Assembly (NCBI GenBank): GCA_963785895.1
Contig: CAWAXB010000006.1
Coordinates: forward strand, 24,062-88,061
Direction of reading: 5' to 3'
Source: an uncultured Actinomycetes bacterium
GTDB taxonomy: Bacteria > Actinomycetota > Thermoleophilia > Gaiellales > Gaiellaceae
Length of the DNA: 64,000 bases
Shown: piece after piece, positions 12,930-61,781 of the stretch
Position numbering within the stretch: position 1 is the first letter of the stretch
How the letters are laid out: the number at the start of each line of letters is the position of its first letter
The notes under the pieces: model-generated
Seen by the model: only the letters and a program-made list of their open reading frames with translations
Databases searched by the model: none
What the model was told of the DNA's origin: nothing
Program-made: the position numbers and the translations under genes

Positions 12930-13142
12930 TCAGACAGCCGCGAGGTGCCGCGCGACGCGGCGCACGACGATGCGGTGACCGCGCGGGCAGGTCATGAAGC
13001 CGACGTCCGCGTCGCGGCGGAGCGTGCCGTGAACGACGAGCGAATCGGCGGCGAACGATTCGCGCAGCGACAGGCATGCCTCGCACGGTTCATCGAAGGT
13101 CGTCGCCTCCGGCCCGAGCCAGACATGCTGCCGCTGGATCAT
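12930..13142 (-). CDS. small CxxC...CxxGH zinc-ribbon-like protein (paralog 2)
   Basis: MIQRQHVWLGPEATTFDEPCEACLSLRESFAADSLVVHGTLRRDADVGFMTCPRGHRIVVRRVARHLAAV. The ATG overlaps the stop of paralog 1 (ATGA). Confidence 0.55.
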   Translation of the reverse strand: MIQRQHVWLGPEATTFDEPCEACLSLRESFAADSLVVHGTLRRDADVGFMTCPRGHRIVVRRVARHLAAV

Positions 13143-13393
13143 GCGATCTGCAGCTGGCGCTCGTCGGGACGGGTGAGTGCGGGCGGGCGCTCGATACGCC
13201 TGAGCACGATCTCGTGCCCCGCCGCGCAACGGACGTGCGAGCTCTCGGTGTCGATCGGGATCGAGCCGCGCACCGCGGCTCCGGCGAGTGCGTCCGCGAA
13301 GAGCGCGCCCGAGACTCGCGCAGCCTCCAGGCACGGCTCGCAGAGGCAGGAGAAGACCGTCGCCGACGGAGTCAGCCAGACGACCGTCCTCAC
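13139..13393 (-). CDS. small CxxC...CxxGH zinc-ribbon-like protein (paralog 1)
   Basis: VRTVVWLTPSATVFSCLCEPCLEAARVSG...SSHVRCAAGHEIVLRRIERP. The GTG overlaps the dnaB stop (GTGA). It shares VWL-P-AT-F---CE-CL and C--GH-IV-RR with paralog 2. Confidence 0.55.
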   Translation of the reverse strand: MRTVVWLTPSATVFSCLCEPCLEAARVSGALFADALAGAAVRGSIPIDTESSHVRCAAGHEIVLRRIERPPALTRPDERQLQIA

Positions 13394-14745
13394 GAGCCGG
13401 CCGCCAGGTCGGCGAACTTCGCGTACCGCTTCTGGAAGGCGAGCTTCTCGATCCCCGTTGCGCCGTTTCTGTGCTTGGCAAGCACCAGCTCGGCGATTCC
13501 CGCCGACTCGGTGTCCTCCGGGTTGTAGTACTCGTCGCGGTAGACGAACATCACGAGGTCCGCGTCCTGCTCGATCGAACCACTTTCACGAAGGTCGGAG
13601 AGGATGGGCCGCTTGTCGTGGCGCTGCTCGACCGCGCGTGAGAGCTGCGAGAGGGCGACGATCGGCACCTCGAGGTCGCGGGCGAGCACCTTCAGCGAGC
13701 GTGAGATCTGCGACACCTCCTGGACGCGGTTCTCGACCGAGGTACCGCTCGTCATCAGCTGCAGGTAGTCGACGATCACGAGGCCGAGGTCGGGCGCCTT
13801 CATCTTGAGGCGCCGTAGCTTCGACCGGATCTCCATCATCGTGATCGAGCCGGTGTCGTCGACGTAGATCGGCGCCTTCGCGAGCTTGTCGCAGGCGGCC
13901 GTGAGTCGCGGCCAGTCGTCGACGGCGAGCTTGCCGGTGCGCAGCCGTTGCGACTCGACCTTGCCCTCCGCGCACATCAGGCGCTGCGTCACCTCGGCCT
14001 TGGACATCTCGAGGGTGAACAGCGCGACAGGCGTTTCGTGGCGGACGGCGACATTCGCCGCCATGCAGAGGGCGAGCGCCGACTTTCCCATCGACGGGCG
14101 GGCCGCGATGATGATCAGGTTGCCGCCCTGGAAGCCGGAGGTCAGGCGGTCGAGGTCGCGGAAGCCGGATGGTGTGCCGGTGATGTCGCTGCCGGCTTCG
14201 TAGAGCTTGGTGATCGTCTCGAACGATTCCTTGAGCAGGTCGTCGATGTGCGCGAACTGAGTTGTGACCCGCTGCTGGCTGAGGGCGAAGATGGCGCTCT
14301 CGGCGCGGTCGATCAGCTCGACCACCTCGCCGGGCCGGTCGAAGCCGAGCTGGGCGATCTCCTGGCCGGCGCGGATCAGGCCGCGCAGGGTCGCCATATC
14401 GCGGACGATGCGCGCGTAGTGCGCGACGTTCGACGCGGCCGGGACGAGCGCCGCCAGTTCCTGGATCTTCTCCTGGCCTCCGATTGCCTCGAGCTGCTGC
14501 AGCTTGTCGAGCTCGTCCGCCAGGGTGATCGCGTCGACCGGGTCGCCCTTGGTGTAGAGCCCGACGGCGGCCCGGTAGATCATGCCGTGCGTCTCCCGGT
14601 AGAAGTCGCTCGCGTCGAGGATCTCCGCGACGGCCCCGATCGCCCCCGGGGAGAGCATCATCGCGCCGAGGACCGACTCCTCTGCATCGAGGTTCTGTGG
14701 CGGCAGGGGAGCGGTGCGGACGGGTGCTTCGGTCTGTGCGCTCAT
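13390..14745 (-). CDS. dnaB: replicative DNA helicase DnaB
   Basis: PPQNLDAEESVLGAMML...GFRDLDRLTSGFQGGNLIIIAARPSMGKSALAL...VIVDYLQLM...SQLSRAVEQR...DLRESGSIEQDADLVMFVYRDEYY. ATG at 14745. No intein. Confidence 0.93.
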   Translation of the reverse strand: MSAQTEAPVRTAPLPPQNLDAEESVLGAMMLSPGAIGAVAEILDASDFYRETHGMIYRAAVGLYTKGDPVDAITLADELDKLQQLEAIGGQEKIQELAALVPAASNVAHYARIVRDMATLRGLIRAGQEIAQLGFDRPGEVVELIDRAESAIFALSQQRVTTQFAHIDDLLKESFETITKLYEAGSDITGTPSGFRDLDRLTSGFQGGNLIIIAARPSMGKSALALCMAANVAVRHETPVALFTLEMSKAEVTQRLMCAEGKVESQRLRTGKLAVDDWPRLTAACDKLAKAPIYVDDTGSITMMEIRSKLRRLKMKAPDLGLVIVDYLQLMTSGTSVENRVQEVSQISRSLKVLARDLEVPIVALSQLSRAVEQRHDKRPILSDLRESGSIEQDADLVMFVYRDEYYNPEDTESAGIAELVLAKHRNGATGIEKLAFQKRYAKFADLAAGS

Positions 14746-14794
14746 CCGATCGCCATCCAATCGCGAGTCCGGCGCGGGCGCCAGTGGCCGTGCG

Positions 14795-14969
14795 TGTGGA
14801 CAACCCGGGGCGTTCGGGCCTGCCCGATGCGGCTTTCCACAGGTTCGGGGCCTTCTCCACGGCGTCTTCCACACTGGGCGAACATACGTTCGTCCAGTCT
14901 TCCACAGCTCCCGGCTGTTGTCCACGCGTGGACGGGGAGTGTCCACAGGAGGGAGGGCTTTTGTCCACA
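14795..14969. promoter_or_regulatory. cluster of nine DnaA-box-like 9-mers upstream of dnaB
   Basis: TGTGGACAA 14795-14803 (reverse orientation, 9/9 to TTGTCCACA), CTTTCCACA 14833-14841, TTCTCCACG 14853-14861, TCTTCCACA 14865-14873 and 14898-14906. TTGTCCACG 14918-14926 has an inverted partner within the palindrome GTCCACGCGTGGAC 14920-14933. GTGTCCACA 14939-14947 and TTGTCCACA 14961-14969 (9/9). Confidence 0.7.
14879..14892. promoter_or_regulatory. LexA (Cheo-type) SOS box upstream of dnaB
   Basis: CGAACATACGTTCG fits CGAAC-N4-GTTCG perfectly. With flanks, GCGAACATACGTTCGTC differs at one spacer base from the lexA operator GCGAACACACGTTCGTC at 37931-37947. Confidence 0.7.
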
Positions 14970-15022
14970 GCTGCCGCTGGCTGAAGAATCGGCCGCAGTT
15001 TGCGGGATGATTCGTCGCGCCG

Positions 15023-15316
15023 TCAGGGCAGTTGGTCGAGCTCCCGCTCGAGCCTTTCGCATCGTTCTTCGAGTCGCGCGGCGAGCAGGGCGAGCGCGCG
15101 GACCGCGCCTCCCTCGCCGAGCTGTGCCAGCTCGGGCCCGGTCGGCGCGGTCAGCAGGTCGAGGAAGTCCCGGGCCGCCTTCGACTCGTCGGCGAAGGTC
15201 AACCCGATCCCGAGGCAGCGCGGGCAGCGCTCGACGGCAGGCCCGCGGTCGTACTGGAGGACGCCGGCCCCATGGCATCCGCCACAGATCGAGATCCGGC
15301 TCATGCGGTCGAGCAT
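15023..15316 (-). CDS. small protein with DnaJ-type CxxCxGxG x2 zinc finger and C-terminal coiled-coil-like tail
   Basis: MSRISICGGCHGAGVLQYDRGPAVERCPRCLGIGLTF...LLAARLEERCERLERELDQLP. It occupies the rplI-dnaB slot. An alternative ATG lies at 15304. Confidence 0.55.
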   Translation of the reverse strand: MLDRMSRISICGGCHGAGVLQYDRGPAVERCPRCLGIGLTFADESKAARDFLDLLTAPTGPELAQLGEGGAVRALALLAARLEERCERLERELDQLP

Positions 15317-15334
15317 AGTGCGAGCCGTAGCCCG

Positions 15335-15976
15335 CTACTCGGTCGGGAGGTCGTCCTCCACGTGCTCGGCCGGCTCCGCCTCGACTTCGACCAGCTCTGC
15401 TTCGACCAGCTCTGCCTCGACCAGTTCCGCGGCGGTTCCCTGCACCTCGGCGGCTTCCCGTCCTTCGGCTTCCGTGGCCTCGACCTCGGCGGCCTCGAGC
15501 GCGGCGAGCTCCTCCTCGGGTGGCAACTCCTCGCCTTCGGGGGCGACGACGAGCTTGAGCTGGGCGGTCACGTCGGCGAACAGCTCGACGGGCACGGTGT
15601 AGCGGCCGATCCGCTTGACCGTGTCCATCTGCACCTTGCGGCGGTCGACCCGCACCTTCTCCTGCTCCCAGAGCCGGTCGGCCAGGTTCGTCGCGGTGAC
15701 CGAGCCGAACAGCGAGCCCGTGGGGCCGGCCGTGACGTCGAAACGCAGCTCGAGCGCCTCGAGACGGTTCGCGATCGCACGCGCCTCGTCGACGGTCTTC
15801 GCCTCGTGGCGTGCCCGCAGCGCGTCGCGCTTCTCGATCTCGCGCACGATCGCCGGTGAAGCGACCTCAGCCAGCCCGCGCGGCAGCAGGAAGTTGCGCG
15901 CGTAGCCACGGGCGACGTTGACGACCTCGCCACGCAGGCCGAGCGTGTCGACGTCCTGCTTGAGAACGACGTCCAT
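15335..15976 (-). CDS. rplI: 50S ribosomal protein L9 with about 65-aa acidic repeat-containing C-terminal extension
   Basis: MDVVLKQDVDTLGLRGEVVNVARGYARNFLLPRGLA..., then EELPPEEELAALEAAEVEATEAEGREAAEVQGTAAELVEAELVEAELVEVEAEPAEHVEDDLPTE. Confidence 0.9.
   Translation of the reverse strand: MDVVLKQDVDTLGLRGEVVNVARGYARNFLLPRGLAEVASPAIVREIEKRDALRARHEAKTVDEARAIANRLEALELRFDVTAGPTGSLFGSVTATNLADRLWEQEKVRVDRRKVQMDTVKRIGRYTVPVELFADVTAQLKLVVAPEGEELPPEEELAALEAAEVEATEAEGREAAEVQGTAAELVEAELVEAELVEVEAEPAEHVEDDLPTE
15385..15429. repeat. 15-bp tandem repeat x3 inside the rplI 3' region (encodes AELVE repeats)
   Basis: CTTCGACCAGCTCTG at 15385-15399 and 15400-15414 (identical), followed by the degenerate copy CCTCGACCAGTTCCG at 15415-15429. 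Confidence 0.8.
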
Positions 15977-16708: not shown

Positions 16709-16741
16709 GGAATGTGCTCCTTTGCTCCGGGTCGCCCCAGG

Positions 16742-27531: not shown

Positions 27532-27623
27532 CGGAGCGGCCCCAGAGTCGAACTGAGCAAGCGTGGGGTTGCCACGCCGGGTCGGCTTTGAAGGCCGACT
27601 GGGCCACCGGGCCCCGCCGCTCC
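27532..27623 (-). tRNA. selC: tRNA-Sec (anticodon UCA)
   Basis: GGAGCGGC/GCCGCTCC forms an 8-bp acceptor stem. D-arm GGGCC-CGGT-GGCCC. Anticodon arm GTCGGC-CTTCAAA-GCCGAC. Long variable arm GCGTGG-CAAC-CCACGC. T-arm CTCAG-TTCGACT-CTGGG. Discriminator G. No encoded CCA. Confidence 0.9.
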
Positions 27624-37770: not shown

Positions 37771-37855
37771 GCGCTGGTGGCGGAATTGGTAGACGCGCTA
37801 GGTTGAGGGCCTAGTGGCCATTGCGGCCGTGGAGGTTCAAGTCCTCTCCAGCGCA
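37771..37855 (+). tRNA. tRNA-Leu (anticodon GAG)
   Basis: GCGCTGG.../...CCAGCGC acceptor stem, anticodon arm CTAGG-TTGAGGG-CCTAG, long variable arm, T-loop GGTTCAAGTCC. Confidence 0.9.
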
Positions 37856-37897: not shown

Positions 37898-37926
37898 TTG
37901 ACGGCGTCCGGAGGAGTCTCTACTCT
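37898..37926 (+). promoter_or_regulatory. lexA promoter
   Basis: TTGACG (37898-37903), a 17-nt spacer, then TACTCT (37921-37926). The SOS box starts 5 nt downstream. Confidence 0.6.
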
Positions 37927-37931
37927 GAGAG

Positions 37932-37945
37932 CGAACACACGTTCG
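37932..37945. promoter_or_regulatory. LexA operator (Cheo-type SOS box) of lexA
   Basis: CGAACACACGTTCG is a perfect CGAAC-N4-GTTCG, 30 nt upstream of the lexA GTG. Confidence 0.85.

Positions 37946-38792: not shown

Positions 38793-38810
<18 letters not shown>
38607..38810 (+). CDS. small CxxC...CxxC zinc-ribbon protein immediately downstream of lexA
   Basis: MASVASLHRTLDQELVALLRGASLECLVCGEFVMHARGGSVFCPECCSQLADE, high GC3. It starts 3 nt after the lexA stop. The last 18 nt overlap the rnpB 5' end. Confidence 0.5.
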
Positions 38811-39125
<315 letters not shown>

Positions 39126-39128
39126 ACG

Positions 39129-39156
39129 GAGAAAGCCCTGGAAACGGGGCTTTCTC
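39129..39156 (+). terminator. 10-bp hairpin directly after rnpB (no U-tract)
   Basis: GAGAAAGCCC-(8-nt loop)-GGGCTTTCTC. Confidence 0.4.
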
Positions 39157-61727: not shown

Positions 61728-61781
61728 TTTTCCACTGGCTGTGGACAATCACCACAAAGGGTGACGTCGATCTGTGGAGAA
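61728..61781. promoter_or_regulatory. three DnaA-box-like 9-mers in a low-GC intergenic region
   Basis: TTTTCCACT 61728-61736, TGTGGACAA 61740-61748 (9/9, reverse) and TGTGGAGAA 61773-61781. Confidence 0.3.

Follow-up and report, generated by a model that had tools for sequence, protein, structure and literature searches.

SOS regulons usually consist of genes for DNA repair, recombination, mutagenesis and cell division, and the helicase of the replisome is normally not counted among them. The usual core regulon comprises recA, lexA, uvrA, ruvCA and dnaE2; dnaB is not part of it. In E. coli, ssb is a classical SOS gene, an essential replication gene whose promoter is regulated by LexA. The operator that serves lexA, recA and other SOS genes in Gram-positive bacteria and Actinobacteria is the Cheo box, CGAAC-N4-GTTCG.

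The closest described counterpart of the locus studied here is dnaB of Mycobacterium tuberculosis. A LexA motif is found in its promoter region, and its induction by DNA damage depends in part on RecA; the LexA ChIP-seq peak falls below the threshold of the peak caller (PMC3381160). Mitomycin C also induces the gene, and a PafBC/RecA-NDp motif is located 57 nt upstream of it (PMC8151990 and its supplement). A LexA ChIP-seq study in Streptomyces venezuelae does not name dnaB as a target, so a link between LexA and dnaB does not appear to be universal in the phylum. A supplementary table from that organism, which we take to report RNA-seq after mitomycin C, gives values of 1.66 for the replicative helicase and 1.94 for an ssb.

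DnaA is the other regulator of interest. As summarized in a later article, DnaA and LexA jointly regulate uvrB and recN of E. coli (Wurihan et al. 2018, cited in PMC8203912), and dnaB of Caulobacter crescentus falls within the DnaA regulon (Hottes et al. 2005, cited in PMC8203912). In Firmicutes and Actinobacteria, DnaA boxes also form clusters away from oriC, which control adjacent genes and titrate DnaA (PMC3245932). In Mycobacterium and Streptomyces, the box with high affinity for DnaA is TTGTCCACA (PMC4285127).

Here we describe a perfect Cheo palindrome in front of dnaB in a genome of the Gaiellaceae, a mostly uncultured family of soil Actinomycetota. Comparison with related loci predicts that it is a genuine, selected LexA operator embedded in DnaA boxes.

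Gene context and comparison loci

The stretch of DNA analysed here, referred to as the window, is 64 kb long, has a base composition of 69% GC and comes from a Gaiellaceae genome (Thermoleophilia, Actinomycetota). On its minus strand, the genes rpsF, ssb, rpsR and rplI are followed by a 97-aa open reading frame (ORF), a 277-nt leader, dnaB, an 84-aa ORF and purA (Table 1). The identity of the dnaB product is supported by Pfam domains DnaB and DnaB_C and by a match to NCBIfam model TIGR00665 that scores 576 bits against a cut-off of 385. The 84-aa ORF is probably co-transcribed with dnaB.

Relatives of the locus were collected by scanning species-representative genomes with the DnaB protein. 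This yielded 80 loci with 77-88% amino-acid identity, nearly all of which are labelled as metagenome-assembled genomes of Gaiellaceae, Gaiellales or Thermoleophilia. In a separate search for DnaB homologues, all of the 120 matches listed share at least 78% identity with the window's protein, such that sampling is within the Gaiellaceae. Two large groups are distinguished below, clade A (loci L002-L052) and clade B (loci L054-L080). The window's own sub-clade is represented by seven distinct sequences, which include the contigs of its closest homologues. A metagenome scan with the LexA protein produced a further 80 loci with 74-89% identity, and 77 of these extend far enough upstream to be informative.

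Several features of the neighbouring genes vary among relatives. The 97-aa ORF encodes two CxxCxGxG motifs (CGGCHGAG and CPRCLGIG) that resemble a DnaJ-type zinc finger, and searches of Pfam and NCBIfam gave no match to it. ORFs of 88-95 aa occupy its position in the closest relatives and not in clade A. An intein domain, PF14890, is found in some close DnaB homologues (P0096, P0099, P0102, P0105, P0110 and P0113; 78-83% identity, 627-683 aa) and is absent from the window's DnaB. The public gene call for the closest DnaB homologue among the matches listed (P0001, corresponding to L161 and L162) begins at an upstream GTG to give a protein of 497 aa. A start at this codon would imply translation through the DnaA boxes. 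The ATG equivalent to position 14745 is supported as the dnaB start by the conserved N terminus. Elsewhere, the window holds a tRNA-Sec gene at 27533-27623 on the minus strand.

The window also encodes LexA, which supplies a reference for the operator. The protein matches Pfam LexA_DNA_bind and Peptidase_S24 and the TIGR00498 equivalog model (222 bits; cut-off, 111). In alignments with solved LexA structures, which cover the whole protein, the Ala-Gly cleavage site is retained, as are the Ser and Lys of the dyad (in 3k2z: AG, GESM and Lys). Thus, the window's LexA is intact and, from its sequence, predicted to be cleavable. A perfect CGAAC-N4-GTTCG palindrome, mostly in the form CGAACACACGTTCG, precedes lexA in all 77 informative loci, where it lies 4-5 nt past a very conserved TTGACG-N17-TACCCT promoter. 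Because the palindrome is perfect at 77 of 77 related lexA genes, CGAAC-N4-GTTCG can be regarded as the LexA operator of this clade.

Other features surround the lexA promoter. Its 17-nt spacer, gcgtccggaggagtctc (37904-37920 in the window), is almost invariant across the 77 metagenomic lexA loci (drawn from L081-L160). This is far more conserved than is normal for a spacer, so it may hold a second regulatory site. A tRNA gene with a terminator-like hairpin (37771-37855, plus strand) is located directly upstream of the promoter, and the RNase P RNA gene (38795-39131, plus strand) is located directly downstream of lexA.

Table 1. Features of the dnaB and lexA regions of the window, with Cheo boxes at ssb in related loci. 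Positions are window coordinates unless a locus is named.
Feature	Position	Strand	Remarks
LexA operator (Cheo or SOS box), perfect palindrome	14879..14892		CGAACATACGTTCG on plus strand; CGAACGTATGTTCG on dnaB coding strand
dnaB, replicative DNA helicase, 451 aa, no intein	13390..14745	-	Gene downstream of the box
84-aa ORF	13139..13393	-	Overlaps dnaB stop; kept in relatives
97-aa ORF	15023..15316	-	Between rplI and dnaB; its stop is the upstream edge of the 277-nt leader
Predicted -35, TGGACA	14919..14924	-	Inside DnaA box CGTGGACAA; invariant in the window's sub-clade
Predicted -10, AAGACT (AAnnnT)	14896..14901	-	3 nt before SOS box; overlaps DnaA box TGTGGAAGA; from conservation
Alternative -10, TATGTT	14881..14886	-	Inside SOS box, coding strand
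DnaA box TGTGGACAA	14961..14969	-	Perfect match to TTGTCCACA
DnaA box TGTGGACAC	14939..14947	-	1 mismatch
DnaA box CGTGGACAA	14918..14926	-	1 mismatch; overlaps -35
DnaA-type box TGTGGAAGA	14898..14906	-	2 mismatches; overlaps -10; 5 nt from SOS box
DnaA-type box TGTGGAAGA	14865..14873	-	2 mismatches; 5 nt downstream of SOS box
DnaA-type box CGTGGAGAA	14853..14861	-	2 mismatches
DnaA-type box TGTGGAAAG	14833..14841	-	2 mismatches
DnaA box, opposite orientation	14795..14803	+	TTGTCCACA, perfect, on dnaB coding strand; 58 nt before ATG
lexA promoter, TTGACG-17 nt-TACTCT	37898..37926	+	TTGACG 37898-37903, TACTCT 37921-37926; ends 5 nt before operator (box from 37932)
lexA operator CGAACACACGTTCG	37932..37945	+	Reference LexA site of the genome; 30 nt upstream of lexA start
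lexA, 209 aa	37975..38604	+	HTH and S24 peptidase domains
ssb Cheo box, locus L055	1283-1296
ssb Cheo box, locus L061	1181-1194
ssb Cheo box, locus L071	1239-1252
ssb Cheo box, locus L073	1151-1164
ssb Cheo box, locus L074	1267-1280
ssb Cheo box, locus L079	1216-1229

The SOS box and the dnaB promoter

The original prediction held that a perfect Cheo box precedes dnaB, that it differs by a single base from the operator of lexA, and that it is set between two boxes of one sequence. Each of these particulars was borne out. CGAACATACGTTCG is present where it was predicted to be, between copies of TCTTCCACA at 14865-14873 and 14898-14906, and the 17-mers that include the flanks of the dnaB and lexA sites differ by one spacer base. 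The distance from the edge of the box to the dnaB ATG is 134 nt, as had been claimed, and the downstream gene is indeed dnaB. Perfect CGAAC-N4-GTTCG matches occur twice in the 64 kb, once at lexA and once at dnaB, compared to 0.15 expected from shuffled sequences. Boxes with one mismatch are found at 11 places (5.4 expected), and none of them is obviously associated with a promoter.

Loss of the site from relatives had been named beforehand as an outcome that would count against the prediction. The box is instead kept upstream of dnaB in 79 of 81 Gaiellaceae loci, where GAAC-N4-GTTC falls between positions -170 and -60 relative to the gene. The background for this motif is eight occurrences in the 532 kb that make up the remaining sequence of the loci, or 0.0017 per interval of equal size. 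When the loci are aligned on the motif, [C/G]GAAC-N4-GTTC[T/C/G] is seen roughly 100-150 nt before the dnaB ATG in almost every one. The two exceptions are L069, which reads GAAC-N4-GTTT, and L055, whose decayed site is the sole true loss.

The pattern of change within the box is informative. Its ten arm positions are essentially invariant, and 20 different spacers are found among the 79 loci. Shared ancestry alone could not produce this combination of fixed arms and a free spacer. Judging from the alignments, the arms of the dnaB box are under purifying selection at an orthologous position and the spacer is not. What preference the spacer does show is for a purine at position 6 (77 of 79) and a pyrimidine at position 9 (79 of 79), a preference that is shared by the Gram-positive LexA consensus.

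The same operator recurs elsewhere in the gene cluster. In six clade B loci, a Cheo box is found directly upstream of ssb, where a TATGCT hexamer precedes it and an AGGAG ribosome-binding site follows. One of the six is L055, the locus that has lost its dnaB box. The rpsF-ssb gap in the window (16709-16741) contains no Cheo box. The ssb boxes in relatives suggest that LexA control of replisome genes in the rpsF-ssb...dnaB cluster may recur within the family.

Three promoter architectures are apparent at dnaB, one each in the window's sub-clade, clade A and clade B. The window has the arrangement TGGACA-N17-AAGACT followed by the box after 3 nt. All seven distinct sequences of its sub-clade preserve TGGACA, a gap of 17-18 nt, AAnnnT, a further 2-3 nt and a perfect palindrome, a composite of -35, -10 and box with a chance rate of 0.0003. 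In 31 of 51 clade A loci, the right arm GTTCT is fused to TANNNT, usually in the form TATAAT or TATACT. Clade B leaders have GGGACA-N17-GAnAAT ahead of the box in 11 of 25 loci. Chance rates are 0.0003 for the general form xGGACA-N16-18-nAnnnT-N2-6-box and 0.0007 for TANNNT fused to the right arm. Thus -10-like hexamers abut or overlap the dnaB box in all clades, with the assignment of the -10 resting on conservation. The -10 element is a place where repressors act.

A scan of positions 14600-15400 for consensus sigma-70 promoters and terminators found nothing, and the proposed -10, AAGACT, matches TATAAT at three of six positions. Since the consensus scanner calls no sigma-70 promoter, the promoter assignments at dnaB are inferences drawn from conservation. 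The start site is likewise uncertain, because promoter geometry differs between clades. With the window's promoter ending 3 nt before the box, transcription of dnaB is predicted to start inside the left arm of the palindrome, as is the case for lexA.

It had also been suggested that TATGTT, inside the box, could serve as a -10. The hexamer is present on the coding strand at the predicted place, but it is unlikely to be the main -10 element, as TGGACA-N17-AAnnnT is better conserved (seven of seven sub-clade sequences). TATGTT occurs in six of the seven and in none of the other clades, and no -35 element is paired with it. It is listed here as an alternative only.

Additional conserved sequences are found on both sides of the box. 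CCTGCA is located 6-8 nt downstream of it in 46 of 51 clade A leaders and 24 of 25 clade B leaders, and is absent from leaders of the window's sub-clade. Near the start codon, the leaders of clade A have two further blocks in common, TTTCCACACCCTTTCG and GGTCTACTA. RNAalifold, applied to 35 clade A leaders of about 100 nt, predicted zero pairs and hence no conserved RNA structure, which implies that the conserved leader blocks act at the DNA level. Conserved near-palindromic blocks, gaagtt..CGCAAAGAGCG for clade A and gaacttCCCGCTCnnAGCGG for part of clade B, occur between the DnaA boxes 30-60 nt upstream of the SOS box in L002-L080, and a CCTAGTAGTAGG palindrome is present in the leader of part of clade B. 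These upstream blocks and the CCTAGTAGTAGG palindrome could be sites for further regulators.

DnaA boxes and alternative readings of the leader

The window's leader contains eight DnaA-type boxes in 175 bp, compared to 0.4 per kb across the window. Scored against TTGTCCACA, a consensus from Mycobacterium and Streptomyces that may not be the one used by Gaiellaceae, two are perfect, two have one mismatch and four have two mismatches; the TCCAC core is intact. Seven of the eight are co-oriented. Successive spacings are 22, 21, 20, 33, 12 and 20 nt; the 33-nt interval is the one that accommodates the SOS box. Across the 80 related loci, the density of DnaA-type boxes is 13.75 per kb in 260-nt leaders and 0.23 per kb in the remainder, a difference of about 60-fold. 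The number and orientation of boxes vary: clade A leaders have 4.4 boxes on average and clade B leaders 1.9, compared to eight in the window. The window's box of opposite orientation, 58 nt before the ATG, has a counterpart in clade A, where a box at about -50 is conserved.

Two of the window's boxes overlap the predicted -35 and -10 elements and four are located in the predicted transcribed leader, a layout that fits repression by occlusion. In the lineage represented by L165-L168, the three boxes downstream of the SOS box read GGGGA rather than GTGGA, and the upstream boxes keep GTGGA; this change is apparently concerted. A second, small group of DnaA-type boxes (ttttccac, TGTGGACAA and TGTGGAGAA) is found at 61730-61781 in the window, where it follows a LuxR-like ORF in a region of lower GC content (63-65%).

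Joint control of dnaB by DnaA and LexA, as put forward in the original prediction, is the reading that these comparisons favour most. The dnaB box is conserved (79 of 81 loci), its palindrome is the operator of lexA (77 of 77 loci), and DnaA boxes are conserved around it (13.75 versus 0.23 per kb). We consider it likely that dnaB is transcribed from a LexA-repressed, damage-inducible promoter with DnaA probably acting as a co-regulator. A LexA dimer on the box would block RNA polymerase at dnaB, as at lexA itself. Once DNA is damaged, LexA would cleave itself under stimulation by RecA and thereby free the promoter, and more helicase would become available for replication restart. Because dnaB is essential, repression would have to be partial or bypassed, for which read-through from rplI or a second promoter are conceivable routes. 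The eight phased DnaA-type boxes would span from about -80 to +95 relative to the predicted start, with two of them over the -35 and -10 elements. DnaA would most likely modulate the promoter, probably as a repressor by occlusion, and/or be titrated there, and its presence could tie helicase expression to initiation status. The promoter, the start site, the direction of regulation by either protein and the interplay between LexA and DnaA are all inferred.

Other functions for the leader can be envisaged. The DnaA-box array might mainly titrate or modulate DnaA, in the manner of datA or the B. subtilis DnaA-box clusters (DBCs), rather than serve as a transcriptional control region. Such a role is unlikely, although eight boxes, seven of them co-oriented and spaced by roughly whole helical turns with the SOS box in a 33-nt gap, would suit it, and DnaA-titrating clusters outside of oriC are known from Firmicutes and Actinobacteria (PMC3245932). 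In this case LexA bound in the gap could modulate DnaA oligomerization and link damage to initiation, with any effect on dnaB transcription being secondary, an elaboration that we likewise think unlikely. However, the number, orientation and position of the boxes differ widely between clades, from one box to eight, and clade B keeps its LexA box with just one or two DnaA boxes. No such variation affects the SOS box or its association with a -10-like element, which argues that the unit of LexA site and promoter is the constant feature. A somewhat less probable alternative is that the palindrome is bound by a regulator other than LexA, or that LexA binds it without regulatory consequence, as at M. 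tuberculosis sites that are bound by LexA with no apparent regulation (PMC3381160). Against this, the dnaB motif matches the clade's lexA operator both in its arms and in its R6/Y9 spacer preference, is fixed beside -10-like elements and also precedes ssb in relatives.

In Actinomycetota, the usual location of the rpsF-ssb-rpsR-rplI-dnaB cluster is close to the origin, and the density of DnaA boxes in the leader is comparable to that of oriC. Both points would agree with a chromosomal or secondary replication origin in which the LexA box is the site of an origin-binding regulator, but this idea is very improbable. Neither dnaA nor dnaN was identified among the window's large ORFs or the Pfam-annotated neighbours of dnaB. 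Cumulative GC skew rises or is flat through 14.9 kb, with no turn or minimum, and the genes to either side share one orientation. GC content is 66% in the leader, where the 13-mer richest in AT coincides with the SOS box. The 30-mer with the lowest GC content (50%) is also at the SOS box, and about 35% of random 277-nt windows are at least as AT-rich. Moreover, box content is not conserved in clade B. An oriC at this position was therefore rejected, given the lack of dnaA and dnaN among the ORFs covered, of a skew turn and of an AT-rich unwinding element, together with the co-oriented flanks and variable boxes. Two perfect Cheo sites arise in 1 of 100 shuffles of the window, so the dnaB match could in principle be a chance palindrome that has no function. 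The probability of this is close to nil: a fixed position in 79 of 81 loci, fixed arms with a free spacer and a background of 0.0017 refute it.

A LexA-repressed promoter at dnaB could also be part of a more elaborate device. Release of LexA might both derepress dnaB and change DnaA oligomerization, to give a combined checkpoint for helicase supply and initiator titration in Gaiellaceae; we regard this as unlikely. In this reading, dnaB would be a core, family-wide SOS gene, with LexA and DnaA acting on interleaved sites of a phased array. If true, such a checkpoint would couple DNA damage to replication initiation. To our knowledge, a mechanism of this kind has not been described in any bacterium.

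Comparison with known systems

In the sampled Gaiellaceae, a LexA operator is a standing feature of the dnaB promoter, which suggests that an increase in helicase supply is a selected part of the damage response. With its interleaved LexA and DnaA sites, the leader is also a small natural system in which to ask how one promoter might be shared by an initiator and the SOS repressor. That such an arrangement was not established, as the original prediction remarked, is correct in part. Each half of it has precedent, which lowers its novelty. Literature searches turned up neither a combination of LexA and DnaA at dnaB nor the family-wide conservation of one. Overall, the LexA box on dnaB extends the known SOS response in a way that is real, if moderate in its novelty.

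With respect to known Cheo systems, the palindrome is identical here, it lies on or next to the predicted core promoter, and both the genome and its clade possess an autoregulated lexA with this operator. The difference is in the target, which here is the gene for an essential replicative helicase, and in the conservation of this link across the sampled family. A precedent for placing an essential replisome gene behind an SOS-inducible promoter is E. coli ssb, and some Gaiellaceae ssb genes carry a Cheo box as well; the gene in question here is a different one, and the window has no box at ssb.

The M. tuberculosis dnaB gene (Rv0058) has the rpsF-ssb-rpsR-rplI-...-dnaB neighbourhood in common with the window. 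Its main driver, in contrast, is a PafBC/RecA-NDp motif, TGTCGGTG-N8-TACGCT, and no PafBC-type motif was seen by eye in the window. The window's box, unlike the mycobacterial LexA motif, is a perfect palindrome, found family-wide and embedded in DnaA boxes. Taken together, the Gaiellaceae operator and the weak LexA motif and PafBC control of M. tuberculosis dnaB raise the possibility that damage-inducible dnaB expression may be an old trait of the phylum that is exerted by different regulators.

The DnaA component of the leader also has counterparts. E. coli uvrB and recN, as far as they are described in the article that summarizes them, similarly have DnaA boxes and a LexA operator in one promoter region, such that initiator status and DNA damage can be integrated. 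Those are repair genes with one or two DnaA boxes, whereas the Gaiellaceae target is a helicase gene with up to eight phased boxes. In Caulobacter, DnaA boxes are likewise found upstream of the replicative helicase gene; that system belongs to another phylum, uses the box consensus TGATCCACA and, in the same summary, is reported with no LexA component. The B. subtilis DBCs, E. coli datA and a cluster in Streptomyces coelicolor resemble the leader in their dense intergenic DnaA boxes, but the number of boxes in the leader varies between close relatives. We know of none among these clusters that has been described with an embedded LexA operator, the feature that is constant in front of Gaiellaceae dnaB.
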